DNA from: an uncultured Pseudomonadales bacterium
GTDB taxonomy: Bacteria; Patescibacteriota; Microgenomatia; UBA1400; PJMF01
Length of the DNA stretch: 64,000 bases
Direction: 5' to 3'
Assembly: GCA_964574595.1 (NCBI GenBank)
Contig: CAZNOF010000003.1
Coordinates: forward strand, 9,715 to 73,714
Shown: piece after piece, positions 8,059 to 61,453 of the stretch
How the letters are laid out: the number at the start of each line of letters is the position of its first letter
How positions within the stretch are numbered: the stretch's first letter is position 1
The notes under the pieces: model-generated
What the model was told of the DNA's origin: nothing
The model's database searches: none
What the model saw: the letters and a program-made list of their open reading frames with translations, nothing else
Position numbers and translations under genes: made by a program

Positions 8059-10425
8059 TTGATTATGACTTGGCATAAATTAATTCAGCAAAAAAAACAA
8101 AAAAAAGGTACTGCTACAAAAAAGCCCTTGCCTAAAATTTTGCGGATTCTCTTCTTTCCCTTTACCAACAAATACTTGCGAATCATCCTACTGATTCTGG
8201 TCGTCTTGTTTATTGCCTTACTCGCCTACACCTTAAAAGACTTACCATCTGCCGGAACATTAGGATCTGGAGACAAATTTGCGGTCAGTAGTCATATTGT
8301 CGATCGCAACGGCAAAGAACTCTACGAGATTTTTGCTGACGAAAATCGAACACCAATTAAAATTGATGACCTGCCTCCATATGTATATCAGGCAAGTGTC
8401 TCAATTGAAGATCGCTACTTCTTCCATCACTTTGGCTTTGACTTTATTGGTATCTCTCGCGCCGCCTACACAACTTTAACTGGGGGTAGATTAGAGGGTG
8501 GCTCTACGATCACCCAACAGCTTGTCAAAAATGCACTCTTAACCCGGGAACGAAGCTGGGAACGAAAAGCCAAAGAAGCCGTCTTAACCGTGGCTACGGA
8601 ATTGCTCTACTCAAAAATGCAAATTTTGGAAATGTATTTAAACTATATTCCATACGGGGGAACGGCAGTAGGTATCGAGTCTGCTTCTCAAAGATACTTT
8701 GACAAACACGCGAAAGATCTTGATTTAGCTGAAGCGGCCATGTTGGCAGGCTTACCTCAATCGCCATCTCAATACTCGCCATTTGGTTCAAATCCTGAAG
8801 CCGGGAAACTGCGTCAAGCTGAAGTGCTCCGGAGAATGGTCGAAGATAAGTACATTACTCAAGCTCAAGCTGATCAAGCAAAAAATGAAGTTCTCCACTT
8901 TGCTTTATCCCGAACAGATATTAAAGCTCCTCACTTTGTGTTCTATGTCAAAGATTTGCTTATTCAAAAGTATGGGATTGATAAAGTAGAAAAAGGTGGC
9001 CTACGAGTTACCACTTCACTTGATTTAGATATTCAGAACACCGCCCAAGCTTCACTTTCTGCTGAAGTGACGAAACTCAAAAACCTACGGGTGGGCAACG
9101 GTGCCGCAATGGTAGTTAAACCAAACACTGGCGAGATTTTAGCCATGATCGGTTCCAAAGATTACTTTGACACGGAAGAAGATGGTCAAGTCAATGTTAC
9201 CATCGCTCAACGACAACCGGGATCTTCTATTAAGCCGATCATGTATGCCACGGCTTTTCAAAATAAATTACTGAATCCTGGCACATATTTGCTTGATATA
9301 CCAACCTGTTTTGTAGTGGCTGGACAAAAAGATTACTGTCCGAAAAACTATGATGGTTCATTTCACGGTCCAATCGCCATTAGACCATCATTAGGTAACT
9401 CTTTAAATATTCCAGCGGTCAAATCCTTGAAGATGATTGGCGTTCAGAACTTTATTCAACAAGCAAACAAAATGGGTATTACTTCCTGGACTGATCCTTC
9501 TAAATATGGCTTATCACTGACTTTGGGTGGTGGCGAAGTCAGGATGATCGATATGGCGCAAGCCTTCTCCGTCATTGCAAATGAAGGCGTAAAAGTACCA
9601 TTAACCCCTATTTTGAAAGTTGAAGATTACCGAGGAAATGTATTGGATAGTGTCGATGTAGAGCAACGAAAAGCCGATTTAAAATCTATGACAGAAGACG
9701 ACTCTCAGTCGTCACTGAACGCCTTGCAAAGAGTGATGGATCGGGCACCTGCCTATTTGACAGCGCACATTATGCAAGACAACTCGGCTAGAACGATGGC
9801 TTTTGGTCCAAGCTCAAAATTAGTCATTCCAAAACAGATCGTGTCAGTTAAAACTGGAACTACAAATGACTTAAAAGATAACTGGACAGTTGGCTTTACT
9901 CCAGAGTTCTTGACTATTACTTGGGTGGGAAATAATGACGACACCGCTATGAATCAAGCGCTGGTATCTGGTATTACTGGAGCAGCACCTATTTGGAATG
10001 ACATCATGTCCTTCATCTTGAAAGATAAACAACCACTTTGGCAAGAAAAACCCGATGATGTAGCTTCAGCCCAAGTCTGCGTCAACGGCTTTCCACCTAA
10101 CGCATCAGGCAGTGCCACATTATCTGATCCAAACTGCCAGCCCAAAGGACAGGATCTGTATTGGACAAAATCAAACCCATCTAGTTCAAAATTCGAGACG
10201 AAGAATATTTGGATTCACAACGACACCGGAATCCCCTTCAAATCAGGAGACTCAACTGATAACTTATCACTACAGTCAAAGACCATTTTGAGTGACCCCG
10301 TCACCGGCGAGTACTGCTCAGACTGTACGCAACCTCTTGACGATAAAGGGAAACCAACTTACAGTCCTGGAGCACTTATTGATGACACGCAAAATCCGAC
10401 AAACACTCCACCACCTCAACAATAA
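8059..10425 (+). CDS. Class A penicillin-binding protein (PBP1A-type transglycosylase/transpeptidase), paralog 1
   Basis: GT51 motifs (EDRYFFHHFG, GGSTITQQLVKN) followed by transpeptidase SxxK (GSSIKP) and KTGTT motifs; N-terminal TM anchor. Confidence 0.9.
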   Translation: MIMTWHKLIQQKKQKKGTATKKPLPKILRILFFPFTNKYLRIILLILVVLFIALLAYTLKDLPSAGTLGSGDKFAVSSHIVDRNGKELYEIFADENRTPIKIDDLPPYVYQASVSIEDRYFFHHFGFDFIGISRAAYTTLTGGRLEGGSTITQQLVKNALLTRERSWERKAKEAVLTVATELLYSKMQILEMYLNYIPYGGTAVGIESASQRYFDKHAKDLDLAEAAMLAGLPQSPSQYSPFGSNPEAGKLRQAEVLRRMVEDKYITQAQADQAKNEVLHFALSRTDIKAPHFVFYVKDLLIQKYGIDKVEKGGLRVTTSLDLDIQNTAQASLSAEVTKLKNLRVGNGAAMVVKPNTGEILAMIGSKDYFDTEEDGQVNVTIAQRQPGSSIKPIMYATAFQNKLLNPGTYLLDIPTCFVVAGQKDYCPKNYDGSFHGPIAIRPSLGNSLNIPAVKSLKMIGVQNFIQQANKMGITSWTDPSKYGLSLTLGGGEVRMIDMAQAFSVIANEGVKVPLTPILKVEDYRGNVLDSVDVEQRKADLKSMTEDDSQSSLNALQRVMDRAPAYLTAHIMQDNSARTMAFGPSSKLVIPKQIVSVKTGTTNDLKDNWTVGFTPEFLTITWVGNNDDTAMNQALVSGITGAAPIWNDIMSFILKDKQPLWQEKPDDVASAQVCVNGFPPNASGSATLSDPNCQPKGQDLYWTKSNPSSSKFETKNIWIHNDTGIPFKSGDSTDNLSLQSKTILSDPVTGEYCSDCTQPLDDKGKPTYSPGALIDDTQNPTNTPPPQQ

Positions 10426-11614
10426 AAAGAAACTTGGACTTTTCTTCTTGATTTTTGGTCTGATTAGTTTGGTTGCTGGTGTGATTTGGTTTAGTAATCA
10501 AAAAACTCCCCTTATTTCTCCAATTACCAAAAACAGCTCGTTCCAGTTTTTATTCAATACGGAAGATGAGAATGCACATGCCAAGCGTGTTGTCTATGGA
10601 TTTTTGCCATATTGGAATCTCAGTAAATTTACTCTTCAGCCAGAAACTACGCATTTATCTTATTTTTCGCTAGCTATTGGTAGTGACGGCTCAATCCTGA
10701 CTAAATCAGGCGGTGAAACCGAGCAAGGGTACTTGAAACTCGGCAGTGATGAGGTGCTGTCATTTTTCAATCAACAGAAAGAACAAAAAGGTCGCGTCGA
10801 TTTGACATTTACCCAATTTGACAATGATGACATCTATAACTTTTTAGCATCGCCAAACGCTCATCAAAAATTCTTAACCAGTCTCGACTCGGTTTTAGAA
10901 GCCTACCCCATTGATGGCATCAATATTGATATTGAATACTCCGGTGAAATTTCGCCACAAATTCGAACTAACATGGTCACATTTATGACCACCCTTAGAC
11001 AACACCTCAACCAAAAGAAAAATCGCCCTCAGCTCTCAATCGATATGTACGTGAGTGGAGCTACCAAGTATTACATCTGGGACGTAGCGGCAATTCAACA
11101 ACAAGTAGACTACATTATTGTGATGGCGTATGACTTTCATCGGAAGTCCTCCCCAGCGGCAGGGCCAGTGGCTCCACTGTTTGGCGGCAAAAAACTTTGG
11201 GACTCAGACATCACCCAGTATTTGAAAGATTTTGTGGCACAAGTACCAGATCAGAAAAAGATATTACTTGGCATTCCCTTCTATGGATACGAATGGCAAA
11301 CGATTTCTTCAGACAGCCAGGCAGCCACTTTCCCAGACACGGGGTCCACTGCTACTTTAAGCCGTGTGGAAGACCTGTTGAATAATAAAGCAGCAAACGA
11401 TGTTCATGAGTACTGGAATGAAGATGCTCTGTCACCTTACTTGTCGTACAAGAAGGACAAAGAGACGCACATCATTTACTACGAAAACTCACGTTCAATT
11501 TCCTATAAATTGGACCTCGTGAACCAATTAGACTTAGGTGGGATTGCGATTTGGTCATTAGGCTACGAGGGAAATTCTCGCGACCTGTGGGACGTTATTC
11601 ATCGCAAGATATAA
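10382..11614 (+). CDS. Glycoside hydrolase family 18 domain protein (YaaH/SleL-like putative peptidoglycan hydrolase), membrane-anchored
   Basis: Catalytic-region motif DGINIDIEYS (DxxNxDxE variant of the GH18 DxxDxDxE motif), N-terminal TM segment. Start trimmed to ATG 10382, which still overlaps the PBP 3' end by 44 nt; the exact start is uncertain. Confidence 0.55.
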   Translation: MTRKIRQTLHHLNNKKKLGLFFLIFGLISLVAGVIWFSNQKTPLISPITKNSSFQFLFNTEDENAHAKRVVYGFLPYWNLSKFTLQPETTHLSYFSLAIGSDGSILTKSGGETEQGYLKLGSDEVLSFFNQQKEQKGRVDLTFTQFDNDDIYNFLASPNAHQKFLTSLDSVLEAYPIDGINIDIEYSGEISPQIRTNMVTFMTTLRQHLNQKKNRPQLSIDMYVSGATKYYIWDVAAIQQQVDYIIVMAYDFHRKSSPAAGPVAPLFGGKKLWDSDITQYLKDFVAQVPDQKKILLGIPFYGYEWQTISSDSQAATFPDTGSTATLSRVEDLLNNKAANDVHEYWNEDALSPYLSYKKDKETHIIYYENSRSISYKLDLVNQLDLGGIAIWSLGYEGNSRDLWDVIHRKI

Positions 11615-11663: not shown

Positions 11664-14066
11664 ATGTCAGCGACCCATTCCAAAAGTGTTATCGTTTATG
11701 AACACCTCCCCACTCCGGGCTGGTATCGTTTTGCCAAATGGATCTTAAAAAGAATCTATGCGATGGGTCGACCATTTCGAGATTACCGAGATACTCAAGA
11801 AGAAAAAGCAGCTGAAAAATTAGCTCGCCAAAGAAAGAAGGAAGTTGCCGAAGCGAAGGCTCGAGCAGAGGCTAGACGAACTGCCCCCAGACCCCTCAGA
11901 TTACCCGCCAACTATCCCAGTATTTTAGGCTTCTTGTTCAACGATCTTATCTCTCCCTTTCTTTATGTTTTTTGGTACCACCCAATCATTACATTTACCT
12001 GTATCTTTTTCAGTGTCTTTATTCTGGGTGGATCGTGGTGGACCTACGACACTGTCTTTAAAGATTTACCGTCTATTAGCCAGATAAATCAACGCAAACA
12101 GATTTTGACAACGAAAATTGAAGATCGAAACGGCAAGCTCCTCTACAGCATTTACAAAGATCAAAACCGCACGCTCATCCCTTTGTCCCGCGTTCCTCTT
12201 GCTGCCCGTTACGCCACGATTGCGATTGAAGATAAAGAGTTTTATTCCCACCATGGTTTTTCGATCAGTGGTATCGTTCGGGCAATTGGCGCAGATCTAC
12301 AAAGTGATAAAGCTCAAGGTGGATCAACCATCACCCAACAGCTCGTCAAACAAACGCTGCTGTCTCCTGAAAAAACATTCAAGCGGAAGATTCGCGAACT
12401 CCTACTATCATTCTTAATGGAGAAAACATACACCAAGGATGAAATTCTGGAAATGTACTTTAATGAAACTCCCTATGGCGGTTCTACCTATGGCATTGAA
12501 GAGGCTGCTCAGCGCTACTTTGGCAAACCCGCCTATAAACTTGACTTGGCCGAATCTAGTTATCTTGCTGGACTACCGGCTGCCCCATCTGCCTATTCAC
12601 CATATGGTCCAAGTCCTAACCTTGGGTTTGCTAGACAGCGAGAAGTGTTAAGAAGAATGGTTGAAGATAAATACATTACCGCCTCACAATCGGCCCAAGC
12701 TCAAGCACAGCAACTGACGTTCAAATCGGATACCACCAACATTCAAGCACCTCACTTTGTGATGTACGTCAGAAATCTGCTAGCCCAGGAGTATGGAGAG
12801 GACGGTGTGAACCAGGGTGGTCTTGAAGTCAGAACAACGCTGGATCTTGATACCCAAAATACCACTCAACAAATCGTCACTGAAGAAGTGGCGAAGCTGG
12901 CGCCCATGCACATTTCAAATGGTGCAGCTTTAATGACAAATCCGCAAACTGGTGAAATTCTGGCCATGGTTGGCTCAAAAAACTACTTTGATGTCAAAAA
13001 CGATGGACAAGTAAATGTGACACTTTCAGAAAGGCAGCCAGGATCCTCAATTAAACCGCTCACCTACTCAATTGCCCTGTCACGAGGCATGACACCATCA
13101 AGCATGATTTTGGATGAACCTATTACCTATAACATACCTGGCTCACCGTCCTATACGCCAAAAAACTACGATGGCAAATATCACGGTAATGTTACTCTGA
13201 GAACCTCACTCGCCTCTTCTTACAATATTCCAGCGGTAAAAACGCTGGCAGAGATCGGCATTCCAGATGAAGTTGCTAAAGCTAAGGAGTTTGGTATCTC
13301 CACTTGGGATGACTCCAGCCGATTTGGTTTGTCACTCACCCTGGGAGCTGGTGAAGTTTTAATGACTGATATGAATCAACTCTATGGCACGTTTGCTACG
13401 TATGGAGAAACCGTAAAATTGAATCCGATTCTAGAAATAAAGAATAATAAAGGTGAAGAGATTTATCGAAATACCTGTGCCTTAGATAATAAAGGCTGTC
13501 CAAGCACAAGAACTCTTGATCCCAAAGTGGCATACCAAATCACTGATATTCTGTCTGACAATCAGGCTAGGAGCCCCGCTTTTGGCCTTCGATCAGTGCT
13601 CTACATTCCCAATCAACAAGTGGCGGTAAAAACCGGCACCACCAACAGCATGCGAGACAACTGGACGTTTGGGTACACCACAGACAGAGTTGTGGGTGTT
13701 TGGGTTGGAAACAATGACAACTCCCCAATGAGTTACGTTGCTTCTGGTATCACTGGTGCGTCGCCTATTTGGAATAAAATTATTCGAACACAACTCGATG
13801 ATGATCACCCATTCGTCTTCCCAGTTCCAGAAGGACTTATTAAAGTTAAGATCTGTGGCAGAACAGGTACGCTAGCCTGCGCCGCTTGTCCAGATAATAA
13901 AGAAGAACTATTTACGCCTGGAACTGAGCCTACTGTTAGCTGCGATAATATGAGCATTCCTTCAAGCACACCGGCGCCAACCTTAAAACCCACACCAATT
14001 CCTTCGCCAAAACCAAGCCCCAAACCTGTGGTTAAACCAAGAACGCCAATTCGACGCAAAATGTAA
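11664..14066 (+). CDS. Class A penicillin-binding protein (PBP1A-type), paralog 2, with charged cytoplasmic N-extension and Pro-rich C-tail
   Basis: GT51 motifs (EDKEFYSHHGF, GGSTITQQLVKQ), SxxK (GSSIKP) and KTGTTNS; C-terminal PTPIPSPKPSPKPVVKP. Confidence 0.9.
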   Translation: MSATHSKSVIVYEHLPTPGWYRFAKWILKRIYAMGRPFRDYRDTQEEKAAEKLARQRKKEVAEAKARAEARRTAPRPLRLPANYPSILGFLFNDLISPFLYVFWYHPIITFTCIFFSVFILGGSWWTYDTVFKDLPSISQINQRKQILTTKIEDRNGKLLYSIYKDQNRTLIPLSRVPLAARYATIAIEDKEFYSHHGFSISGIVRAIGADLQSDKAQGGSTITQQLVKQTLLSPEKTFKRKIRELLLSFLMEKTYTKDEILEMYFNETPYGGSTYGIEEAAQRYFGKPAYKLDLAESSYLAGLPAAPSAYSPYGPSPNLGFARQREVLRRMVEDKYITASQSAQAQAQQLTFKSDTTNIQAPHFVMYVRNLLAQEYGEDGVNQGGLEVRTTLDLDTQNTTQQIVTEEVAKLAPMHISNGAALMTNPQTGEILAMVGSKNYFDVKNDGQVNVTLSERQPGSSIKPLTYSIALSRGMTPSSMILDEPITYNIPGSPSYTPKNYDGKYHGNVTLRTSLASSYNIPAVKTLAEIGIPDEVAKAKEFGISTWDDSSRFGLSLTLGAGEVLMTDMNQLYGTFATYGETVKLNPILEIKNNKGEEIYRNTCALDNKGCPSTRTLDPKVAYQITDILSDNQARSPAFGLRSVLYIPNQQVAVKTGTTNSMRDNWTFGYTTDRVVGVWVGNNDNSPMSYVASGITGASPIWNKIIRTQLDDDHPFVFPVPEGLIKVKICGRTGTLACAACPDNKEELFTPGTEPTVSCDNMSIPSSTPAPTLKPTPIPSPKPSPKPVVKPRTPIRRKM

Positions 14067-20800: not shown

Positions 20801-22516
20801 ATGGCTTTGTTACGCGAAGGGCATATGTTTAAGTTTCCAAGAAGGCTTTTTTCATCCGATTGGCTCGAGAAGCAGCAGAGCACCATTTTATCAGCTGCCG
20901 CAGTGGTTATGATCGCCAATGTGGCCTCTGCTATATCTGGATTAGTCCGTCAACGACTGATTTTGAGTGTTTTCTTAAGTACTGAGAAAAGTGCTTACGC
21001 AGCCTACACCGTCTCGTCAACGCTGCCAGATATCGTTTTCCAATTTATCATTCTAGGTGCCCTCTCGGCTTCATTTATTCCGATTTTCAGTCAATATCAA
21101 AAACAAAGTGAAGAAGAAGCCTACAAAATGACTTCTTCAATGATGAACGTGCTGTTATTCATCTTTTTGATCTTCTCGGTTATCGTGTTCATCTTTGCTG
21201 CCCCAATCACTCGAGCTGTAACCGGCAAAGGCTTTACCGCCGAGCAAATCGAAATTTCCGCCAATTTGACCAGAATTATGCTTGGCGCCCAGTTTTTCTT
21301 TGCCATTTCTAACTTTTTTACCGGGATTTTGCAGACTCATCGTCGATTTGTTATCCCAGCTATTGCTCCCCTGGTTTATAACCTTGGTATTTTACTTGGT
21401 GTATACATTTTCTCCGGGAAATTTGGTATCTACTCTACAGGAATTGGTGTAGTGATTGGAGCCTTCCTGCACATGGCCATCCAGCTACCGCTGGTATACA
21501 AGATGGGCTTTCGTTATCGATTAAACTTCAATTTTAGACATCCAGGAATCAAGACCATGTTTAAGTTGACTCCACCAAGAGTCATTACTTTAGGTATTAA
21601 TCAATTTCAGGATCTGGCTGATAACTTCTTTGCCACATCGATTGTGGTTGGTGAGTTTGCCCAACTCAGCGTGGTCGTCATAACTTTGGCGCAGCAGCTA
21701 ATGACCTTGCCCATCCGCTTCTTTGGCGCTCCAATTGCTCAAGCAGCCTTGCCGTTCCTAGTCACCGAAGCTGAAAAGAGTGACTTAACAAATTTCCGAG
21801 ATCTGCTCCTGAAATCGATTCACCAGGTTTCGTTCTTCGTCTTCCCAGCCTCAATTTTGCTTTTGATCTTACGCATTCCGGTCGTCCGTATTGTCTATGG
21901 AACTGGTAGTTTCCCATGGCAAACCACAGTTCTCACAGCCAGAATTGTTGGAATCATCGCTATTTCTATTACTGCTCAATCAATCGTTCAAGTTTTAATT
22001 CGCGCCTTTTATGCGTTAAAGAATACCCGGACACCATTCATTATTACTTGTTTCACAGTCGGTTTGTATGTGACCTTGAACTGGATTTTCATCTTTATGA
22101 TGCAAATCGGAGTGGTTGGTATGGCGATTGCCATCACGATCACCGCCTTTGTTGAAATGTTCTTGTTCCTCCTTTTCCTGAACCGCCGAGTCAAAGGGAT
22201 GCTTGGAAAGTCTTTCTGGATTCCACAAATAAAAATGTTGATGGCCAGCTTTTTAATGGCAATCTTCTTATACTTACCGTTCAGAATTTTGGATGAATTA
22301 GTCTTTAATACCAGCAGGACAATCGAACTGATCCTTTTGACGATTTCTACATCCACTATTGGTATGCTAGTCTATATATACTTCGCATTGCTTTTTGACG
22401 TTTCGGAACTGTATATGATCCGTTCCGTAATGAATAAGTTCGGCACTTGGGGCAAGATTCTGTCCCGAAGCCAAGAAGTTGTTTTAGAGTCACCAATGGG
22501 CAATGAAGAAGTGTAA
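20801..22516 (+). CDS. murJ: Lipid II flippase MurJ (MviN family)
   Basis: 571 aa, about 14 TM helices, MOP-superfamily MurJ pattern; divergent from rpsT. Confidence 0.8.
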   Translation: MALLREGHMFKFPRRLFSSDWLEKQQSTILSAAAVVMIANVASAISGLVRQRLILSVFLSTEKSAYAAYTVSSTLPDIVFQFIILGALSASFIPIFSQYQKQSEEEAYKMTSSMMNVLLFIFLIFSVIVFIFAAPITRAVTGKGFTAEQIEISANLTRIMLGAQFFFAISNFFTGILQTHRRFVIPAIAPLVYNLGILLGVYIFSGKFGIYSTGIGVVIGAFLHMAIQLPLVYKMGFRYRLNFNFRHPGIKTMFKLTPPRVITLGINQFQDLADNFFATSIVVGEFAQLSVVVITLAQQLMTLPIRFFGAPIAQAALPFLVTEAEKSDLTNFRDLLLKSIHQVSFFVFPASILLLILRIPVVRIVYGTGSFPWQTTVLTARIVGIIAISITAQSIVQVLIRAFYALKNTRTPFIITCFTVGLYVTLNWIFIFMMQIGVVGMAIAITITAFVEMFLFLLFLNRRVKGMLGKSFWIPQIKMLMASFLMAIFLYLPFRILDELVFNTSRTIELILLTISTSTIGMLVYIYFALLFDVSELYMIRSVMNKFGTWGKILSRSQEVVLESPMGNEEV

Positions 22517-22533
22517 AATGAAATTGCGTTAAA

Positions 22534-23082
22534 ATGAAAAAGCCTGCCAACATCAATATAAATCTTTTACCAAAAGATCCTTTTTTAACCAGTACGGCTG
22601 GTCGATTTTTGCAATGGGTTTTGACTGTTGGCCGCTACTTAGTGGTTTTCACCGAGCTAATCGTGATTATCAGTTTTGGATCACGCTTCACGCTTGATCG
22701 CAGAGTCACTGATTTAAATAGTGGCATCTTGCAACGCAGTACCATCATTGCTTCGTATGGTGACTTGGAAGGAAAAGTTCGTGAAATTCAAAAGAAGACA
22801 GAAAGTTACGTTCAGGTGGAACAGAAGCAAAGCTTGGCCGACGCCTTTCCAGCCTTATCTGAAATCACTCCTCGCGATGTCACGCTCATCAACTTAACAA
22901 TCCAACCTGGAGCTGTCAGTTTCTCAGGAAGAACCAACTCTACAACTTCATTAAACTTGTTAATTAACAACTTGGTTCTTTCTAATAAATTCGCAGACGT
23001 CTCAGTTGAGCGACTTACTTCTGGAACAGCGCAAGATCCAGGATTCACTTTTAAGATAAACGCGACGGTGAAAGCAAAATGA
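22534..23082 (+). CDS. Type IV pilus assembly protein PilN-like (bitopic)
   Basis: N-terminus MKKPANININLLPKD (PilN INLLP motif) then a single TM and periplasmic domain. Confidence 0.5.
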   Translation: MKKPANININLLPKDPFLTSTAGRFLQWVLTVGRYLVVFTELIVIISFGSRFTLDRRVTDLNSGILQRSTIIASYGDLEGKVREIQKKTESYVQVEQKQSLADAFPALSEITPRDVTLINLTIQPGAVSFSGRTNSTTSLNLLINNLVLSNKFADVSVERLTSGTAQDPGFTFKINATVKAK

Positions 23083-23717
23083 CATCAAGAAGAAGCCAAA
23101 TTACCACCACTCTTTTACAGTTTTACGAAAAGCCTGTAGCAAAGGTATCTTCTGAACTTTTGTTCTCTATTTTTGCGGTGATCTTTTTTGCCGTATTTGC
23201 GATCAGACCCACAATTTTAACCATGTCTGATTTGATTAAAGAAATTAACGATAAACAAGCTTTGGAAGATCAGCTAACTCAAAAGATTGCTGCCCTTTCT
23301 ACAGTTCAGACTCAGTACTTAAATGAGCAAGAACGCTTGAAGGTTTTAGATGCTGCCCTGCCTTCAACTCCAGATTTGCAAGGAGCTCTTTTACTAATTG
23401 AAAAAACTGCCAGCGAAAATAATATTGCCATTTTGGAAATGGAAGCCAAAGAAGTTCCTCAGCAAGACCCGACTACTATCGACTTCTCCAAAAAAGCTCG
23501 TTTAAGTAAGCCATTGTTAATCAATATTACTGGTACATATCCAGATATTGCGCAATTTGTTGAGGGGATCAGGAATTTACGTAGAGAAATGGTGATCGAG
23601 TCCGTCTCTTTCACCCTGGCCGATGCTCAAGGAAAGAAACAACTATCAGCGAAAGTAACCGTCAGTTTGCAGTATTTTGGAGTTCAGTCGTCAGTACCAG
23701 GAGCAGCGACCAAATAA
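23079..23717 (+). CDS. Type IV pilus assembly protein PilO-like (bitopic, coiled-coil)
   Basis: Short N-terminus, TM (LFSIFAVIFFAVFAI), coiled-coil, then a C-terminal domain; translationally coupled to the pilN-like gene (4-nt overlap). Confidence 0.45.
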   Translation: MTSRRSQITTTLLQFYEKPVAKVSSELLFSIFAVIFFAVFAIRPTILTMSDLIKEINDKQALEDQLTQKIAALSTVQTQYLNEQERLKVLDAALPSTPDLQGALLLIEKTASENNIAILEMEAKEVPQQDPTTIDFSKKARLSKPLLINITGTYPDIAQFVEGIRNLRREMVIESVSFTLADAQGKKQLSAKVTVSLQYFGVQSSVPGAATK

Positions 23718-23724
23718 AGTAATT

Positions 23725-24171
23725 ATGGAAATGAAGACCACACTTAAATCACTCAATAATCAGCAAACTTTTCTCAAGTTACTGATCTTCTCATTTGTGA
23801 CAGTCATGATTTGGATCGGCTTTAGTATTTTTTCATCTCAACAAAAACCACAAATTTCTGAAGAGCTGCAAAAAATGGCCATTCCGCTCAGTCCACATAT
23901 TGATATGGATGTAATTAGTCGAATCGAACAAAAGAAAAGTTACACTGATGCAGAACTAGAGAATTTCACTATTTTTGTCGTTACTACTGACAGATCTGGA
24001 GCCCAAATCATTTCCACAAAAGACGGCTCTCCAGTGAATGCGCAGCAGACTCAACAAAGCCAAAGTACCCCTGCCATAACCTCTCCTGCTTCTGGGCTAA
24101 CTACCCCTGCCATAACAGAACCAGCTAGTCCCGCGGTTGCCACCGGCTCCAACGCTGCACTGCAACCCTAA
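23725..24171 (+). CDS. hypothetical membrane-anchored protein with C-terminal TPAIT(S/E)PAS repeats (possible pilus-assembly accessory)
   Basis: Start trimmed to ATG 23725 after the pilO stop; TM FLKLLIFSFVTVMIWIGFSIF; repeated TPAITSPASGLTTPAITEPASPA. Confidence 0.4.
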   Translation: MEMKTTLKSLNNQQTFLKLLIFSFVTVMIWIGFSIFSSQQKPQISEELQKMAIPLSPHIDMDVISRIEQKKSYTDAELENFTIFVVTTDRSGAQIISTKDGSPVNAQQTQQSQSTPAITSPASGLTTPAITEPASPAVATGSNAALQP

Positions 24172-24246: not shown

Positions 24247-25821
24247 GTGAGATTTGTAATTATAATGAAAAAAACGTTTACACAGCGACAAATTCCTACT
24301 CTGTTAGGTATGGTAATTTTAATTGCTGCATTGGTAGGCGGAATTTTCTTTATTGGTCAAGGCGGTGGTGTGTTCGCTCCTCGAGCTACTGCTCAAACTA
24401 CTCCCAAAAAAGTGACTGTTAGTAATGTGAAGGATGATAGTTTCACTATTTCCTTTTTAACCGATGATGCAACCGCTGGTTTTGTAAAGTACGGCACAAC
24501 CGCCGATGCCCTGCAATCCCAGGCAAGTGATGACCGTGACCAATTCTCTGGCAGTGTTGGACAATTCACCACTCACCACATTACGATTCACGATTTACAA
24601 CCAGGCACCACCTATTACTACACACTCGGAACCACCGCTTCTTCTAAATACGATAACAACGGCGCTCCTTATTCGACAAAAACCACACCCAAAAGTGGCA
24701 CCTTACCTATTGCCAAAACAATCTACGGCACAGTGAATACCAGTTCAGGCAGTCCTGCCGCGGGATCCATTGTCTATGTCAACTTAGATGGCGCCTATCA
24801 ACTTTCAGCCTTAACCAAAGACTCTGGGAGTTGGGCAATTCCATTAGCCAACGCTCGATCTGCAACAACAGGTGAGTACCGCGCGGTCAATCCGACCGAT
24901 CAATTAGCCGTGACCATTCAAGGCGTAGATGTGAATCTGACAAGTACCCTAACTACGTCAGTAGAAAATGCTCAACCGGTTACCACTGTAACCCTAGGAC
25001 AAGATCAAGTGAATCAAAACTCAGGTGCTGGCACAACCCAAGCAGACAATAGTGCAACTTCACCCACTGTTTCTTCATCACCTGTGGCTTCGCCGATGAG
25101 CTCAGCTTCTCCTAGTAGTTTGGCTGGTTCAGACAGCCTGGGGAGTTTAACTAACTCAGGAGTTGCTTACCAAGTTCCTAATGACACTTCTGTCAGTACT
25201 ACCAGTTCTGGCACACAACTTACCACACAAACACCAATCGATACGGTCGTTGAAGTAAACACGGTTAAAACTGAAACAGTTCAAACGGATCAACCAGTTA
25301 TTCAAGGAAAAGCTGTTCCTAATGTACTTGTAAGTGTTGAAATTCACTCTGAAGCTGCCATCAACACCCAAGTTCAGACAGACAGTCAAGGCAACTATAG
25401 TGTGGATCTTCAGCAACTAGAAAAGCAGCTTGAGCCAGGTCAACATACCATCACCGTCACATACACAGATCCAAACACCAATAAGTCGGTCACTCAAACC
25501 AAAACATTTACGGTGCAAAGCCAAGGATTGATTGCTGCTGCCAACCCTTCTCCAACACCGTACAGTACCAATAATCCGTTTGTAATCGCCACTCCTTCCC
25601 CAACTCCAATTATTGCCACTGAGTCCGCCTCACCAACTCCAACTTTGGTGGCCACAACTTCTACTGTTATCTCAAAAGTAAGTACCACCAGTGCTATGCC
25701 AAGATCTGGATCAGCAACAACAACCTTCCTGTTAATTGGAGGCGGTTTGTTCTTTATCCTCGCCGGTGGCTTCAGCTACTGGGTTACTGCTCGACAATTA
25801 GATCCCCAAGATTTAGGATAA
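24247..25821 (+). CDS. Cell-surface protein: N-terminal anchor/signal, FN3-like domain, CarbopepD_reg-like and Ig-like domains, S/T/P-rich stalk, C-terminal sorting-signal-like tail (MPRSG plus hydrophobic segment)
   Basis: FN3-type motif LQPGTTYYYTLGTT; IYGTVNTSSGSPAAGSIVYV; S/T/P-rich region; C-terminus AMPRSGSATTTFLLIGGGLFFILAGG... Confidence 0.6.
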   Translation: MRFVIIMKKTFTQRQIPTLLGMVILIAALVGGIFFIGQGGGVFAPRATAQTTPKKVTVSNVKDDSFTISFLTDDATAGFVKYGTTADALQSQASDDRDQFSGSVGQFTTHHITIHDLQPGTTYYYTLGTTASSKYDNNGAPYSTKTTPKSGTLPIAKTIYGTVNTSSGSPAAGSIVYVNLDGAYQLSALTKDSGSWAIPLANARSATTGEYRAVNPTDQLAVTIQGVDVNLTSTLTTSVENAQPVTTVTLGQDQVNQNSGAGTTQADNSATSPTVSSSPVASPMSSASPSSLAGSDSLGSLTNSGVAYQVPNDTSVSTTSSGTQLTTQTPIDTVVEVNTVKTETVQTDQPVIQGKAVPNVLVSVEIHSEAAINTQVQTDSQGNYSVDLQQLEKQLEPGQHTITVTYTDPNTNKSVTQTKTFTVQSQGLIAAANPSPTPYSTNNPFVIATPSPTPIIATESASPTPTLVATTSTVISKVSTTSAMPRSGSATTTFLLIGGGLFFILAGGFSYWVTARQLDPQDLG

Positions 25822-26584: not shown

Positions 26585-28600
26585 TTGGAAGTAAAAATGG
26601 AAAATACAGTTAACATTCGCGAGACATCGACAGCTACTGTTCCCCCAGCAGCACCGAAAAAGAAAGTTCCTATCCAAGTGATACTTGGTGTAGTGGCTTT
26701 CGTATTATTAGTATTAGGTGGTGGAGTTGCTTTTTTCCTCTCACAACAATCTCAAGATATAAGACAGCAGGCTAGTTCAAGTTATGACACTTGTATCGCT
26801 GGCTGTAATGCTATGCCTCCAGGTCAAGCTCAAGGTCAATGTTTCGCTGGTTGCAGTACGGCAAATACTCCAACTCCAAGCACGGCACCTATTCAAACTT
26901 GTCTTCAATCTTTGAACCAAACTTGTTCAACTTCCTGTGGGGCAGGCATGATTGCAGGTGGTTCAGGCACATGTAATGCTGGATTAACTTGCTGTAAACC
27001 AAACCCACAAACCTGTCTAGTCGTTTCCGGTCAAACTTGTTCAACTTCTTGTGGAACAGGTTATTCTGCTGGAACTGGCACATGTGGCGGCGGTTTAACC
27101 TGCTGTAAATACGATCCAAGTAGTACTCTTTGTTACTCAACAAACTCAGATTGTATTCCAGCTGGTTCTTGTGGATCAAATGGCTATAACTATACAACCC
27201 AGGCAGCTTGTCAGGCAGCACTAGCTAACCTAAACATCTGTACCGCATCTGGTCAATGTCGCGGTGGTAAGCTCTGTACTGCAGCAGATGCCACAGCCAA
27301 TAAGACAACCGGTAGCGGCGCAAGTTGTACCAACACCTGCTACGGCGTAAATAATCAATGTAATGGACCTGGTCTATGTGGAAGTTCTGATTTCCCATTA
27401 CCAGATAGAGCTACATGTTTAATCGCCTTAAACGGTATCACTCCTAAATGTACATCAGTTGGTCTATGTATTAACTATCATCTCTGTACCGCTGCTGACG
27501 TGAGCAAAGCTGCTCAATCAACAACTGGTAGTGGTGCTATCTGTACTCCAGAAGTCGGACAATGCTACAGCAAATCAAATAACTGTGCTGCTACTGGAGC
27601 ATGTGGTGCAACTGGCGGATACATCTACTACACAAAGGCTGAATGTCAGACAACAACCTGTTGGGGTACCGCAAATGAATGTAATAGTAGAACTTATTCA
27701 TGTACGGCACCAAACACATATGACAACATCAATGCCTGTGTTGTGGCCTTAAACCCTCAAGCCACGAGTTGTTACAGTAGAACAAACAACTGTGCTACCG
27801 CTGGGACATGTGGTGCAACTGGTGGATACATCTACTATACAAAAGCTGACTGTCAAAATTATGGAAGCTCTTGTGCGACTGGTACCAAGTATTGTGCAGC
27901 AACAAACTCATGTATTGCTAACTCTGCAACTTGTCAGACCGCAGGATCATGTGTTCAGTCACAAGGTTCTTGTGAAGGCGCTGGTGCAACATGTTGTGGT
28001 GGATTAGTCTGCCAAGGTGTAGCTGGTTCAAGATTATGCCAACAGCAGAATGCAAACGACTGTGCTCCAACAGACCACTGTGGTGGCAACCAAGGCTACA
28101 TCGGCTTCCACTGCACAAACTTAACAAACGGTCAATGTAATAGTAATCCTCAGACCTTTGACACAATGGAAGCGGCTGTCGCCTACGCCGGAACATGTGG
28201 ACAAGCTGACACTGTCTGTGCAGCTCAACGCAATCTATGTGGTGGCTTCACCATCTTCAGTTCAGGTTGTACTCCAACCTCAACCAACCCACCTGCGTCT
28301 ACGCCTCCAGGTGTCACTCCAACACCAATTGGCCCAGTCTGTTTGAACATCGCTATGAGTAAACCAAATCCAGTGGTCGGTGACACCGTTACCTTCACCT
28401 GTGGAACAGTAGCTGGCGCTGCAAGATACGAATTCAGAGTCAAGTTACCAGATGGAACAATTCAAAACTTGGCTACCTCAACTACAAGCGTTAACGTCTC
28501 AACCTCGTTCACCGTTAATAGTTCAGGATCACACTTTGCACAATGTAGACTCTGCACAGGAGCAGCTGAAAGTACTTGTCAAGCATACTCAAGTATATAA
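26585..28600 (+). CDS. Cys-rich repeat surface protein (paralog A): N-terminal TM anchor with conserved GGGxxFxLSQ..DIRQQAS motif, tandem CSTSCGxG...GLTCCK and CYS(K/R)xNNCA(A/T)xGxCGATGGYIYYTKA(E/D)CQ modules
   Basis: 671 aa with more than 60 Cys; internal tandem repeats at the nucleotide level (26896-27123 as two ~114-nt units; 27555-27650 versus 27765-27860). Confidence 0.6.
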   Translation: MEVKMENTVNIRETSTATVPPAAPKKKVPIQVILGVVAFVLLVLGGGVAFFLSQQSQDIRQQASSSYDTCIAGCNAMPPGQAQGQCFAGCSTANTPTPSTAPIQTCLQSLNQTCSTSCGAGMIAGGSGTCNAGLTCCKPNPQTCLVVSGQTCSTSCGTGYSAGTGTCGGGLTCCKYDPSSTLCYSTNSDCIPAGSCGSNGYNYTTQAACQAALANLNICTASGQCRGGKLCTAADATANKTTGSGASCTNTCYGVNNQCNGPGLCGSSDFPLPDRATCLIALNGITPKCTSVGLCINYHLCTAADVSKAAQSTTGSGAICTPEVGQCYSKSNNCAATGACGATGGYIYYTKAECQTTTCWGTANECNSRTYSCTAPNTYDNINACVVALNPQATSCYSRTNNCATAGTCGATGGYIYYTKADCQNYGSSCATGTKYCAATNSCIANSATCQTAGSCVQSQGSCEGAGATCCGGLVCQGVAGSRLCQQQNANDCAPTDHCGGNQGYIGFHCTNLTNGQCNSNPQTFDTMEAAVAYAGTCGQADTVCAAQRNLCGGFTIFSSGCTPTSTNPPASTPPGVTPTPIGPVCLNIAMSKPNPVVGDTVTFTCGTVAGAARYEFRVKLPDGTIQNLATSTTSVNVSTSFTVNSSGSHFAQCRLCTGAAESTCQAYSSI

Positions 28601-28609
28601 AGAAATTAT

Positions 28610-30628
28610 ATGATTAACGCCGTAAGCTCAACGCCAAACAACAACGCCCAACCAGTTAGCCCAATTGGTGACACCAATATGCCAAATACTGCAGTCGTTC
28701 CTCCAGCCCCTGTTGCCCCAGCACCAGCAGCTCCAGTTACACCAATGGCTACTGTTACGACAACATCTTCTATTCCAATGACTCAACCGGCAGCTCCGGT
28801 GGCAAGTCCATCTCCAGTTTCAGTTGCTGAGCCATTGCCTGTCAGACCTGATTTGAGAGAAAACAAGACTTCTATCGATACATCCTCATTACCAACTTCT
28901 TCAGTTGGTGGTTCTACTCCTCCTGCAGCACCAATGATGCCAAAGAAGAAAAATAAAATGGGCATGATCTTAGGTGTGATTGCTTTATTTATTTTAGTGA
29001 TTGGTGGCGGAGCTGGTTTTTACTTATCACAACGCAATTCAGATATCAGACAACAAGCTAGTACAGGTACCGCAACCCCAGGTTGTAACACCACCTGTTC
29101 TACAAACTTAGACTGTCCAGCCGCTCACACCTGTTCTGCAGGTAAATGTGCTTTGACGGCTTGTTTGGCCACAGGTGCAACTTGTGACGCGAACAAGTGT
29201 GTGTTGACCAACCAATCAGCTTGTGTGCTGAACTTTGTGGCCACAACCACCACGACTACTTCACTCTCTTGTGTTAAGTCATCGTATCGAGATGAACTCA
29301 GTAACAGTGCTGGTAGTTATACATTAACAACTGCCAAGTCCACCTTTAGTCCATCTGACGTTGTTGTCTACAAAGTAGCCATGACTGCCAATAACTTGGG
29401 AACTTCACAGTTAGTTTTGAAAGATATTCTGGCCGATGCTTCAGGTAATAACTTGGGTAAGGTTACCTTCTTAGACTCAGATTGTGGTGCAAACGCTTAC
29501 AACGCCACAACAAAGACATTAACTTGTACGGACACTCAATCAGCTGCCAATGCCACTGTAAATCACATTTTCCGTGTCAGATTAGCAGCAAGTATTGCTG
29601 ATGGTACTGTCATTAAGAACGCCGCTACCGTCGTAGCCGGTGCCACGAATGCCTCTTGTGAAGTGAACGTAACTGTAAGTAATCCTACTGCCAGTCCAAG
29701 TCCATCACCAAGTCCAAGCCCATCTCCATCACCAAGTCCTAGTCCAACTCCAACTGCGACCACATACACATGTAATGGATCATGTACCACAGATGCTCAA
29801 TGTCAAACCGTGAACAGTGCCTATGTCTGTTCCAACAACCTGTGTCGCTTGGGTACCAACACGTCATCAACGACATGTACACCTGCCACGACAACCTACG
29901 CTTGTAACAGTAGCTGTACAACCGATGCCCAATGTCAAACTGCGAACAGTGCCTACTCATGTTCATCTGGCTACTGTCGACTAGCTGCGAACACGTCTTC
30001 AAGTACCTGTTCTCCAGCTAACATCACATATGCCTGTAACAGTAGTTGTTCTACAGACGCACAATGTCAGACAGCCAATGGTAGTTACACCTGTGACGCC
30101 AACAGTGGCAACAAGTGTCGCTTAGACTCAAACAGAGGCTCAGAGACCTGTACAGTACCTGTGAACACTTATGCCTGTAACAGTAGCTGTTCCACTGATG
30201 CTCAATGTCAGACAGCCAACAGTAACTACGTATGTAGTAACAGTGTCTGCCGCCTGAGTAGTAATGTGTCTGCCGAGAACTGTCAGCCAAGTACACCAGT
30301 CATCGTGAATGTCCCAGTTGGTTGTAACCAGACATGTGCCTCCAACTCAGACTGTTCTGCAAGTAACCAAGTCTGTGTACAAACAGATGCTGGCCAACGC
30401 TGCAGACTGGATAACTATCCAAACAGTGAGACATGTTTGCCACCTTCTCAGACTACAACCACTGTCTATGTGTCACCAACTCCAACCACAACAGTTGCAG
30501 CTGCTACACCACAGCCAGAGAAACCAGCTGAGTTACCAAGAACAGGTTCAACAGAGACAACAGTACGATTCTTACTCATGGGTGCAGCAGCAGTCGTCTT
30601 AGGCGCACTCGGACTGCTCCTCCTCTAA
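28610..30628 (+). CDS. Cys-rich repeat surface protein (paralog B) with LPRTG sortase-type C-terminal sorting signal
   Basis: Pro/Ala-rich N-region, TM with the same GGGAGFYLSQRNSDIRQQAS motif, (SP)n linker, 4-5 tandem ~44-aa TYACNSSC(S/T)TDAQCQTANSxYxCS...CRL modules (29762-30300), C-terminal LPRTGSTETT plus hydrophobic tail. Confidence 0.65.
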   Translation: MINAVSSTPNNNAQPVSPIGDTNMPNTAVVPPAPVAPAPAAPVTPMATVTTTSSIPMTQPAAPVASPSPVSVAEPLPVRPDLRENKTSIDTSSLPTSSVGGSTPPAAPMMPKKKNKMGMILGVIALFILVIGGGAGFYLSQRNSDIRQQASTGTATPGCNTTCSTNLDCPAAHTCSAGKCALTACLATGATCDANKCVLTNQSACVLNFVATTTTTTSLSCVKSSYRDELSNSAGSYTLTTAKSTFSPSDVVVYKVAMTANNLGTSQLVLKDILADASGNNLGKVTFLDSDCGANAYNATTKTLTCTDTQSAANATVNHIFRVRLAASIADGTVIKNAATVVAGATNASCEVNVTVSNPTASPSPSPSPSPSPSPSPSPTPTATTYTCNGSCTTDAQCQTVNSAYVCSNNLCRLGTNTSSTTCTPATTTYACNSSCTTDAQCQTANSAYSCSSGYCRLAANTSSSTCSPANITYACNSSCSTDAQCQTANGSYTCDANSGNKCRLDSNRGSETCTVPVNTYACNSSCSTDAQCQTANSNYVCSNSVCRLSSNVSAENCQPSTPVIVNVPVGCNQTCASNSDCSASNQVCVQTDAGQRCRLDNYPNSETCLPPSQTTTTVYVSPTPTTTVAAATPQPEKPAELPRTGSTETTVRFLLMGAAAVVLGALGLLLL

Positions 30629-31449: not shown

Positions 31450-32247
31450 TTAATAAGTCGCTTGGATTTTCTTTCCTCTATTCATCAACCACACAACGGC
31501 AATGGAAATCTCATAGAGCACTACTAGCGGAATGGCTAAAATGCACTGATTGAGTGGGTCTGGAGTTAAGATAGCACCCGCCAGAAAGCTGAATACGATT
31601 ACATAGCGTTGTTGTTTTAATAACCAGCGGTGATCGAGTCTATAAAGGTGATTGGTAATATAAAAAACCAGCGGGATTTCAAACACCAAACCGAATGCAA
31701 ACAGGTACTCTGTAATGAAAGATAAGTATTCATCAGTGGTAATCAGCGACTTGAGTTCAGGAGATGAAAAAGTATTAAAAAAGTGGATGGTGACAGGCAA
31801 ACTCACATAGTAGCCAAAGAGAATACCAGCCGTAAATAAAATTACGCTCACTAAAACAATCAACAAAATTACTTTCCGTTCAAATTGTGGAAATGCGGGA
31901 GCTAAAAACATTAACACTTCATACAAGACGATTGGAATTGATAGCAGCATGCCAACAAAAAAAACGACTGTAAAAGTAAATGACAGGGCGCCGATCGGGG
32001 CGTTGTAAAAAAGTGAGGCGTGGAGTGGCTCGACCAAGAGTTCTAATAAACGTTCATGAAAGAATGAAACAATAAATACTAAAAGAAAAATGCTGCCGGC
32101 GCAAATAAGGAGTCTTTGGCGAAGTTCTGACAAATGTTCTTGGAAGGTTTGTTTTTTCGGCAGCTCAGCAACTACAATGACTGGCTCAAGTAATTTAATC
32201 TTCTTTTTTGGGTGCTTTGGGAGGGGTTTTCTCTTCTCTGACATCAT
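31450..32247 (-). CDS. tatC: Sec-independent protein translocase TatC
   Basis: QEHLSELRQRL N-motif and 6 TM helices; the annotated 5' end overlaps tatA by 53 nt, so the true start is probably downstream. Confidence 0.75.
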   Translation of the reverse strand: MMSEKRKPLPKHPKKKIKLLEPVIVVAELPKKQTFQEHLSELRQRLLICAGSIFLLVFIVSFFHERLLELLVEPLHASLFYNAPIGALSFTFTVVFFVGMLLSIPIVLYEVLMFLAPAFPQFERKVILLIVLVSVILFTAGILFGYYVSLPVTIHFFNTFSSPELKSLITTDEYLSFITEYLFAFGLVFEIPLVFYITNHLYRLDHRWLLKQQRYVIVFSFLAGAILTPDPLNQCILAIPLVVLYEISIAVVWLMNRGKKIQATY

Positions 32248-32380
32248 CTGTTAAGCCTTTGCGAATTTCTCGAATTGCTTCACCAATACTACGAGAAAGC
32301 TCGGGGATTTTTTTGCCGCCAAATAAGAACACTATGATGAGGAGGACGATGAGAAGCTCTTCAGATTTTAAACCAAACAT
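32195..32380 (-). CDS. tatA: Sec-independent protein translocase TatA/E
   Basis: 61 aa: MFGLKSEELLIVLLIIVFLFGGKKIPELSRSIGEAIREIRKG (TatA TM plus amphipathic helix signature). Confidence 0.7.
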   Translation of the reverse strand: MFGLKSEELLIVLLIIVFLFGGKKIPELSRSIGEAIREIRKGLTDDVREEKTPPKAPKKED

Positions 32381-61450: not shown

Positions 61451-61453
61451 CGT

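Follow-up and report, generated by a model that had tools for sequence, protein, structure and literature searches.

Two adjacent genes for cysteine-rich surface-type proteins

The 64-kb stretch of contig CAZNOF010000003.1 (the window) contains, at positions 26585-30628, two same-strand genes, A and B, that together fill this interval and code for cysteine-rich proteins of the surface type (Table 1). A preliminary description of this DNA had placed two adjacent open reading frames (ORFs) here, and both are indeed present. Given that only 9 nucleotides (nt) separate the stop codon of A from the start of B, the two genes are probably co-transcribed; scans for promoters and terminators gave nothing better than shuffled sequence. 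The start of A is probably the ATG at 26597 (MENTVN) and not the TTG at 26585, because the identical NCBI protein P0058 and the orthologs in the related loci L001 and L002 begin at this point and a GGAAG lies 8 nt upstream of the ATG; an exact-sequence look-up of the NCBI copy of A returned no match.

Cysteines account for 10.0% of A (67 residues) and 6.4% of B (43 residues) versus 0-1% in 12 neighboring proteins, and neither A nor B reaches the threshold of any Pfam or NCBIfam model. A BLASTP comparison aligned the two proteins solely across residues 6-75 of A and 84-160 of B (79 amino acids (aa), 48% identity, E 3e-15), with all other segments at E above 10. The homology is confined to an N-terminal module of 46-79 aa (the N-module) that combines a polybasic stretch, a glycine-containing transmembrane (TM) helix and the sequence QDIRQQAS. 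A shared N-terminal module had been noted before, and it stands; the term paralogous, then applied to both proteins, holds for this module alone, since the remainder does not align and hundreds of otherwise unrelated proteins carry the same module. The earlier view of exported, disulfide-rich proteins of the surface type in the genome of an ultrasmall, Microgenomates-type member of the Patescibacteria is supported. The main results beyond it are a grammar of N- and C-terminal signals, a conserved A-to-B gene pair and a lead towards the beta-defensins, their functional reading being predicted from sequence, structural models and context. The family libraries and literature that we searched hold no description of the N-module, the C-terminal domain of A, the repeat of B or the A/B pair.

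Table 1. Features of the A/B gene pair (window positions)
Feature	Position	Strand	Basis and remarks
Gene A	26597..28600	+	ORF list; 667 aa from ATG 26597; ORF list itself gives TTG 26585
N-module of A	26645..26782	+	PAAPKKK, then TM helix with GGG, then FFLSQQSQDIRQQASS; BLASTP and profile search
Four-Cys segment (CxxxC...CxxxC) and PT linker	26783..26884	+	Conserved in L001 ortholog
Two T units, C-x7-C-x3-C-x10/11-C-x5-CC-K	26885..27118	+	DNA repeats D6, D9; family with beta-defensin-like six-Cys motif
Five Y units (C[YW]x5Cx5-6Cx11-13C) interleaved with two Z units (Cx5Cx5Cx16-18C)	27119..27871	+	Variable center of A
Conserved Cys-rich core	27872..28270	+	Closer A-family members
A-type C-terminal domain, ~91 aa	28325..28597	+	Probably Ig-like beta-sandwich, ending ...AQCRLCTGAAESTCQAYSSI at the C-terminus; alignment A5
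Gene B	28610..30628	+	ORF list; 672 aa; 57 homologs
MINA start and 104-aa P/T/S/A/N-rich low-complexity leader of B	28610..28933	+	Start conservation; leader presumably cytoplasmic
N-module of B	28934..29071	+	MMPKKKNK, then TM helix with GGG, then FYLSQRNSDIRQQASTGT
N-terminal 9-Cys module of B	29078..29224	+	First six Cys, C-x3-C-x5-C-x5-C-x4-C-x4-C, a variant of the repeat unit
CLIPPER/DUF11-type (CnaA-like) Ig domain	29255..29689	+	K223, D272, N337 putative isopeptide triad
(SP)n/TP linker	29690..29758	+	Simple 6-24 nt DNA repeat (Tandem Repeats Finder); missing from L001 ortholog
Five tandem six-Cys units, 44-50 aa each	29759..30445	+	Short helix and beta-hairpin; knottin- or toxin-like mini-domain
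C-terminal sorting signal of B	30533..30625	+	LPRTG, then STETTVR, then 19-aa hydrophobic stretch ending LLLL

The N-module and its likely role in export

Searches of 1.84 billion protein cluster representatives with a profile of the N-module (46 positions, 25 sequences; alignment A1) recovered 953 representatives at E<=1e-3 and 229 at E<=1e-10. The module always lies within the first ~200 residues of these proteins, and the passengers that follow it are diverse. Its consensus reads PKKK-x3-K-x-I-x-G-x3-LLL-x3-G-x-G-x-G-x-YL(S/T)Q-x2-QD(I/V/L)RQQA(S/A), and conservation ends abruptly after QQA[SA], beyond which the sequence varies and is often very rich in cysteine (up to 93 residues). No Pfam or NCBIfam model matches the module, and the models for known specialized signals in these libraries (YSIRK, TIGR01168/PF04650; KxYKxGKxW, TIGR03715; ESPR, PF13018) gave no match in A or B at E<=0.1.

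Ahead of the polybasic stretch lies a low-complexity leader of 20-190 aa. B itself begins with MINAVSS, and among 202 retrieved proteins a MIN start (mostly MINA) is seen in 67, with asparagine at position 3 in 97. Given that the MIN(A/V) codons vary synonymously between loci, this start points to conservation at the peptide level, which, together with the lack of a conserved internal methionine, indicates that the long leader is translated. An internal start of B at MMPKKK was rejected, as the methionine is absent there in most homologs and the MINA start is conserved. In L001 the ortholog of B (9947) has a MINA-type start three codons after an upstream stop, and the deposited start lies 18 codons too late. 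A link between MINA and the INLLP motif of PilN was considered and dropped, because the PilN of the window has its own INLLP and the MINA proteins lack LLP. In about half of the B homologs the MINA start is followed by a second type of anchor (...IAQRQ...VAPxAPxSxPxA), in which a small-residue motif lies ~20 aa past the helix.

The preliminary description had called the module a shared membrane anchor; that it is shared is clear, and it is the permanence of the anchor that has become less likely. In two relatives, L002 (7781-8044 and 8051-9991) and L004 (7564-8289 and 8273-9988), the A position is split into two ORFs, of which the short one carries the N-module and the second combines a classical signal peptide with a different Cys-repeat passenger and the A-type C-terminal domain. 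This arrangement looks like a cassette replacement by recombination. Since a classical signal peptide takes the place of the N-module in these two A-type orthologs, the passenger needs export and not this particular anchor, and the N-module is more likely to be an extended export signal than a permanent anchor.

Extended signal peptides with comparable features are known from Gram-positive LPXTG adhesins, namely the accessory Sec signal of GspB (KxYKxGKxW) and YSIRK, and from autotransporters (ESPR). Like the N-module, they are long N-terminal targeting regions in which a conserved motif is found well ahead of the hydrophobic core. In GspB, glycines G75, G79 and G80 of the hydrophobic core determine by which route the protein is exported (PMC5578698). 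The helix of the N-module, too, has a conserved GxGxG/GGG, and the module stands ahead of large surface proteins with repeats. It differs from all of these signals in that it matches none of them in sequence, its conserved parts are the MINA at the extreme N-terminus and the QDxRQQA after the helix, and the spacer between them is of low complexity and variable length. SecA2 and SecY2 were not seen in the window.

Genomes with an exact QDIRQQAS are labeled Pacebacteria/Paceibacterota, Patescibacteria group or Levyibacteriota, and homologs also go by the name of Microgenomates; up to four such loci occur in one genome, and several of the metagenome-assembled genomes (MAGs) are labeled Pseudomonadales or Gammaproteobacteria. 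The locus search used this exact pattern only, so that its 20 loci undersample the family. The MAGs labeled uncultured Pseudomonadales or Gammaproteobacteria carry N-module, A-type C-terminal domain and B-type genes in contexts like those of the candidate phyla radiation (CPR; L012, L014, L017, L018, L019, L021, L022 and L005, the last from GCA_020632255.1), and their taxonomic labels are probably wrong. Four further proteins (P0054, P0048, P0055 and P0056) comprise a PBP1C-like penicillin-binding protein with one B-type six-Cys unit at its C-terminus and three N-module proteins with cohesin domains (PF00963).

Two mutually exclusive C-terminal endings

B ends in a sortase-type sorting signal that occupies residues 642-672: LPRTG (642-646), followed by a 26-aa tail in which the hydrophobic stretch, FLLMGAAAVVLGALGLLLL, comes after STETTVR. 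AlphaFold2 models residues 648-671 as a helix, and a PT linker lies between the repeats of B and the LPRTG. The motif, previously singled out as a sortase substrate signature, is conserved among orthologs, with L642, P643 and G646 invariant in 47 B homologs. At position 645 the residue varies (T in 19 of these, A in 15, S in 13), in roughly equal shares that set the family apart from LPXTG adhesins.

A was said to lack such a tail, and it does; it is not simply anchorless, and ends instead in a conserved Ig-like C-terminal domain (CTD), which a PT linker separates from the Cys-rich core. The A-type architecture is thus N-module, variable Cys-rich passenger and CTD. An alignment of 17 CTD sequences (A5) has 10 invariant columns, and the best profile matches in the PDB are Ig V domains (E 0.008). 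Matches to PKD (3 of the 17 members; 16.6 bits, cut-off 23.5) and to Ig_3 (2 of 17) all fall below threshold. The CTD, with this weak similarity to Ig V-set and PKD domains, is probably an Ig-like beta-sandwich. Word-indexed homolog searches, with 4 matches for A and 3 for its C-terminal region, had suggested that the A family is rare, an impression overturned by profile searches.

The endings of the 138 best N-module representatives were surveyed with hidden Markov models (HMMs) built in this analysis: 53 have the CTD, 21 the LPxTG tail, none both, and 64 neither. In 41 of the 53 the CTD lies within 6 aa of the C-terminus; of the 64 others, 41 have fewer than 300 aa, most of these probably being fragments. 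B-type repeats, one or more per protein, are found in 40 of the 138. A and B represent two alternative and exclusive architectures on one lineage-specific N-module.

A conserved A-to-B gene pair

When each module was compared by tblastn with all the fetched loci, an ORF with an A-type CTD was found directly upstream of a B-type gene in the window and in L001, L002/3, L004, L005, L007, L008, L018, L020, L026 and L028. The gap between the two is 3-22 nt in 10 of these 11 loci and ~300 nt in L018; four of the 11 were retrieved via the N-module alone. The gene order LepA-S20-MurJ-PilN-PilO-small ORF-fn3 protein-(sugar transferase)-A-B is kept in L001, L002, L004 and the more distant L026, and a second genomic context (S1-PGK-...) is seen in L005, L020 and L027. 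The exception to the pairing is L027, which has B-type genes and an insertion sequence element but no CTD. Relative to L001, LepA is 97%, PilN 93% and MurJ 86% identical, B is 66% identical and A aligns at its termini only, which indicates that A and B are diverging faster than their neighbors. In the closest relatives, L001 and L002, the CTD is 67-80% identical, while the passengers have been swapped.

A tentative extension of the reading that we favor below, and one that we consider possible, is that the wall-anchored B acts as a scaffold displaying fast-changing, ligand-binding A-type partners, which would dock via the CTD onto B or the adjacent wall. It would account for the mutual exclusivity of CTD and LPxTG tail, for the position of the CTD at the very C-terminus, for the immediate adjacency of A-type and B-type genes in 11 loci and two genomic contexts, and for the swapping of passengers ahead of a conserved CTD; the cohesin domains of some N-module proteins also fit it. 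Against it stand L027, with its B-type genes and no A-type gene, the consideration that the 53 CTD proteins need not all adjoin a B gene, and the alternative that the CTD might bind wall glycopolymers or a host ligand. Of the two sites of attachment, B would be the more novel one. The type IX secretion system (T9SS) CTD and the dockerin-cohesin pair are C-terminal sorting or docking systems, and by analogy the CTD of A is likewise small, located at the extreme C-terminus, fused to diverse passengers, exclusive of another anchor and encoded next to a wall-anchored partner. It differs in having no sequence relationship or demonstrated structural relationship to either, and in belonging to an organism with neither an outer membrane nor a T9SS.

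Interchangeable cysteine modules in A

Both motifs earlier described in A are present in two copies each: CSTSCGxG...CCK, in the T units, and CYS(K/R)xNNCA...YIYYTKA(E/D)CQ, in units Y3 and Y5, whose DNA copies (27563-27648 and 27770-27855) are 84% identical. The Y units, the Z units and the Cys-rich core have no relatives in the PDB or Pfam. The core follows the pattern ...CCxGxxCQGVxG...GYIGFxC..NGQC..NPQTF..YAGTCGQxD..., with 32 columns invariant in 7 sequences (alignment A8). Across the analysis, matches to WAP (E 0.017), DUF4215 (E 0.02) and Disintegrin (E 0.55) were set aside as noise.

The Y/Z region is missing from the orthologs in L001, L002 and L004, and the center of the protein at the A position differs in every relative: L001 has Dickkopf_N repeats (PF04706; E 4.7e-13, 6 stretches), L002 a CIxNG...CCSG...CK repeat and L004 DUF5648 repeats. 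The A of the window has no Dickkopf_N repeat at the equivalent position, only T, Y and Z units without a Pfam match. These comparisons indicate that the real hot spot of variation is the center of A, where unrelated Cys modules replace one another from relative to relative.

The T units offer a lead to a known fold. With a profile of 14 T units the top 15 sequence matches in the PDB were all beta-defensins, the best being human beta-defensin 1 (BD-1; E 0.0013), with which all six cysteines, GG-x-C, GTC and the terminal CCK align over the full 36-position model. In a control, none of 2000 shuffles of BD-1 with the cysteines held fixed reached the real score. In Pfam, 8 of the 14 units have Defensin_beta (PF00711) as their best family, the highest score being 19.5 bits and the cut-off 21. 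The two T units of the window itself have no Pfam match, and their spacing is shifted (7/3/10-11/5 versus 6/4/9/6). T units further differ from beta-defensins in being near-neutral, judging by inspection of the sequence, and not cationic, and in forming beads inside large proteins. We therefore describe them as beta-defensin-like, a lead and not a family membership, with convergence being possible. In a study of bacterial defensins (PMC11561630), the bacterial ones are all of the cis type and trans-defensins are reported only from animals.

B as a putative stalk with a CLIPPER-type domain

The Cys modules of the pair had been described as unrecognizable. This holds for the repeat of B and most modules of A, which match no family above threshold, but the center of B is a known type of domain, CLIPPER/DUF11. 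In an AlphaFold2 model of B made with 47 sequences, residues 117-151 form the helix of the N-module, the 9-Cys module has a predicted local distance difference test score (pLDDT) of ~90 at residues 161-180 that falls to 70-78 by residue 200, the sandwich of residues 216-360 reaches 90-97, and the repeats are mostly at ~90 or more. A Foldseek search of the PDB with the sandwich returned the CLIPPER domain 9ifr as best match (E 1.7e-6), with the Gram-positive pilins EbpB, BcpA and SpaD next. PF01345 is precomputed for 14 of the 57 B homologs; B itself does not match it at E<=0.1. A lysine, an aspartate and an asparagine occur in the same order as K715, D748 and N806 of 9ifr, and are well conserved (K223 in 38 of 45, D272 in 44 of 45, N337 in 40 of 44 sequences). 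They make up a putative isopeptide triad like the one described for CLIPPER (10.1101/2025.04.25.650565), and an isopeptide bond may form in this domain of B.

B shares with LPXTG/CLIPPER fibrillar adhesins an LPxTG with a hydrophobic segment, an N-terminal export signal, a CnaA-like Ig domain with the lysine-aspartate-asparagine order of 9ifr, a repetitive stalk and low-complexity linkers. It departs from them in that its stalk consists of six-Cys mini-domains in place of Ig repeats and its export signal is the lineage-specific N-module and not a classical or YSIRK signal peptide. That B is the pilin of a sortase-assembled pilus, with A as an accessory subunit, appears very unlikely: the structural matches to pilins and one homolog named by NCBI as an isopeptide-forming domain-containing fimbrial protein point that way, but the family consensus has no conserved YPKN-type pilin-motif lysine, the sortase found in L005 fits no known class, including class C (23-35 bits against cut-offs of 140-166), A has no LPxTG, and B has only one Ig-like domain, the rest being mini-domains. 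The recently described Pam pilus of CPR bacteria was also considered and is unrelated, being a chaperone-usher-like system.

The tandem repeats of B number five, as the upper count of the preliminary description had it, and each has six cysteines, not five as then stated (C-x3-C-x5-C-x8-C-x4-C-x10-C; 30 in total). The DNA periods of ~132-141 nt are confirmed by a repeat search, which places the repeats from 29757 with spacings of 132, 132 and 141 nt at 61-75% identity; Tandem Repeats Finder did not pick them up. Because the Ig domain dominated a fold search with the whole of B, a single unit was modeled separately with 55 units (pLDDT 92) and forms a short helix and a hairpin. Its relatives are marginal: Foldseek matches at E ~5 to scorpion toxins and to the squash knottin EETI-II, and profile matches at E 0.1-1.2 to carboxypeptidase-inhibitor knottins, no well-characterized repeat family being above threshold. 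The unit resembles knottin or CS-alpha-beta mini-proteins (potato carboxypeptidase inhibitor, EETI-II, scorpion K-channel toxins) in its size of ~41 aa, its six cysteines and its short helix with beta-hairpin, and it opens like the carboxypeptidase-inhibitor knottins with C-N-x-x-C-x-T-x-x-x-C.

In view of these likenesses, the defensin-like and knottin-like modules might be toxins or antimicrobial effectors released against a host cell. We consider this extremely unlikely, given that the resemblance of T units to beta-defensins and the weak one of the B unit to scorpion toxins and protease-inhibitor knottins are all sub-threshold or marginal, that the modules are near-neutral, that they form beads within proteins of 670 aa that carry anchoring signals, and that no processing sites are evident between units.

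The repeats had also been read as undergoing active expansion and contraction, with the proteins serving as variable antigens in the evasion of phage or immunity. A comparison across relatives, as had been proposed, gives 1-6 C-terminal units in the B family; the SP linker is a simple DNA repeat that the closest ortholog lacks, and the center of A differs in every relative. All of this variation is between species and none is visible within a population. The B repeats, at their low DNA identity, would be poor substrates for slippage or recombination, the closest ortholog (L001) has the same five units in the same order, and no diversity-generating element, invertase, invertible DNA switch, silent cassette or near-identical repeats were seen among the window ORFs scanned. 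Neither ongoing repeat change nor evasion is therefore upheld by these data, and we regard this explanation as quite unlikely.

A proposed mechanism and its main rival

On balance, we lean towards the view that A and B are co-transcribed partners on the cell surface of Microgenomates-type Patescibacteria, both of them built on one export module, exported and oxidatively folded. Given that a polybasic stretch precedes the helix, the N-module would insert N-in/C-out as an extended Sec-type signal sequence, and it would probably be removed at or near the invariant alanine of QQA, because this is where conservation stops and because the module can give way to a classical signal peptide. Outside the membrane, the cysteine modules would be oxidized to disulfides. 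A sortase would then cleave B between the threonine and glycine of LPRTG and link it to the wall, where it would stand as a stalk of five mini-domains whose distal end bears the CLIPPER domain, possibly stabilized by an isopeptide bond, and the N-terminal Cys module. A would carry rapidly exchanged Cys mini-domains between its export module and the CTD, which presumably holds it at the surface, on B or on the wall. A binding activity of the pair would most likely serve adhesion to, or contact with, another cell or surface, and host attachment is plausible.

Several observations weigh against this view. A basic C-terminal tail is absent from B, none of the 47 homologs having K, R or H in its last 12 aa (there is instead one R or K ahead of the hydrophobic stretch); B scores 15.1 bits with PF00746 (Gram_pos_anchor), below the cut-off of 20, and TIGR01167 is not reported for it at E<=0.1. 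As the basic tail and a score above the HMM threshold are two defining features of such signals, and B lacks both, we call its sorting signal a variant of the classical one, and in these respects too it differs from LPXTG/CLIPPER adhesins. Furthermore, Pfam scans of 47 ORFs, tblastn with the sortase of L005 and a motif scan detected no sortase, oxidoreductase or signal peptidase in the 64-kb window. In L005 a sortase (PF04203, with GH and TLYTC motifs) is encoded two genes from two B-type genes, but this is the only one of ~14 related loci with a sortase nearby. In Microgenomates at large sortase is near-ubiquitous, and an MdbA-like oxidoreductase and VKOR are enriched in CPR bacteria (PMC6744442). 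Finally, two features of the presumed cleavage site are unusual for signal peptidase I, namely the glutamine at -3 and the position ~12 residues beyond the hydrophobic core, and AlphaFold2 continues the TM helix through the QDIRQQAS motif.

Because of the missing processing genes, the missing basic tail, the atypical site and the continued helix, the main rival is that the N-module is an uncleaved, permanent type II signal-anchor. A would then be tethered with its CTD at the distal tip, B would be held at both ends or released by another protease, and the MINA start and leader would have an intracellular role in partner binding or regulation. The length of the TM helix (~22 aa) after the polybasic stretch is consistent with this, as are the small-residue motif ~20 aa beyond the helix in the second anchor type of B homologs, and a conserved extreme N-terminus with a leader of up to 190 aa that would be costly to discard. 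We nevertheless hold it to be possible but doubtful, since an ordinary cleavable signal peptide suffices in two A-type orthologs, conservation stops exactly past QQA[SA], as it would at a processing site, and we know of no precedent for a sortase substrate tethered at both ends.

A bolder version of the export reading, which we think rather unlikely, is that the N-module is the address label of a dedicated, undescribed Microgenomates-type export and sorting route, whose cargo ends either in a non-basic sortase signal or in a new Ig-like docking domain attaching A to B, and that some T units have a genuine bacterial trans-defensin fold. Should the beta-defensin-like units adopt the fold implied by their motif, there would be consequences for our view of its origin.

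Patescibacteria are believed to spend their lives attached to other cells and, to our knowledge, almost nothing is known of their surface proteins beyond type IV pili; literature searches on Patescibacteria sorting signals, Pacebacteria Cys-rich surface proteins and Microgenomates sortase substrates found nothing specific. The locus points to a family-wide grammar of surface proteins, in which one lineage-specific export module (at least 953 sequence clusters) is combined with two exclusive endings and with disulfide-rich mini-domains that relatives exchange from a common pool, and the conserved two-gene unit adjoins pilN/pilO and cell-wall genes. Profiles of the N-module, the CTD and the non-basic tail offer handles for finding the surface proteome in metagenomes, and testable predictions follow on processing, sortase specificity and docking.

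Genomic neighborhood

Directly upstream of the surface-protein cluster (20801-24171, + strand) the window codes for MurJ, PilN (with the INLLP motif), PilO and a small TM protein, in an order kept in L001, L002, L004 and L026; the window ORFs scanned included no pilin, PilM, PilB or PilC. These genes are followed by a conserved gene for a protein with fn3/Pur_ac_phosph_N and Big_13 domains (24247-25821, + strand; 5115-6647 in L001, 5501-7003 in L002, 5890-7434 in L004 and 5242-6684 in L026). Its C-terminus runs from MPRSG (LPVTG in L004, VPVSG in L026) through a TM segment and AR/AQ to an acidic tail; to judge from this ending, it looks like a second sortase-type substrate in the cluster, with a tail style unlike that of B.

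Other genes of the window are: 1) TatC and a 61-aa TatA-like gene just downstream of the A/B pair (31450-32380, - strand), syntenic in L001, with no twin-arginine motif in either A or B; 2) a long glycopolymer block (38419-59970) coding for a carbamoyltransferase, WecG/TagA, an epimerase, an asparagine synthase-like protein, several GT1/GT2/GT4 glycosyltransferases, two Wzy-like proteins, an ABC-2 exporter and a CDP-glycerol glycerophosphotransferase, which suggests that a teichoic-acid-like or O-antigen-like polymer is specified near the surface-protein genes; 3) a class A penicillin-binding protein ORF (8059-10425, + strand) that in the mechanical ORF list overlaps a GH18 chitinase-like ORF (10292-11614, + strand) by 134 nt, the true start of the latter probably lying further downstream, with a second class A penicillin-binding protein after it (11664-14066); and 4) HlyD and MacB-FtsX genes (60395-63452). 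In L026 (15617-17779), L027 (13032-15365) and L028 (15801-18061), B-type genes are followed a few genes further downstream by a DUF8128/DUF87/TrwB-like (VirD4-type) ATPase and a HlyD-ABC-MacB/FtsX transporter.

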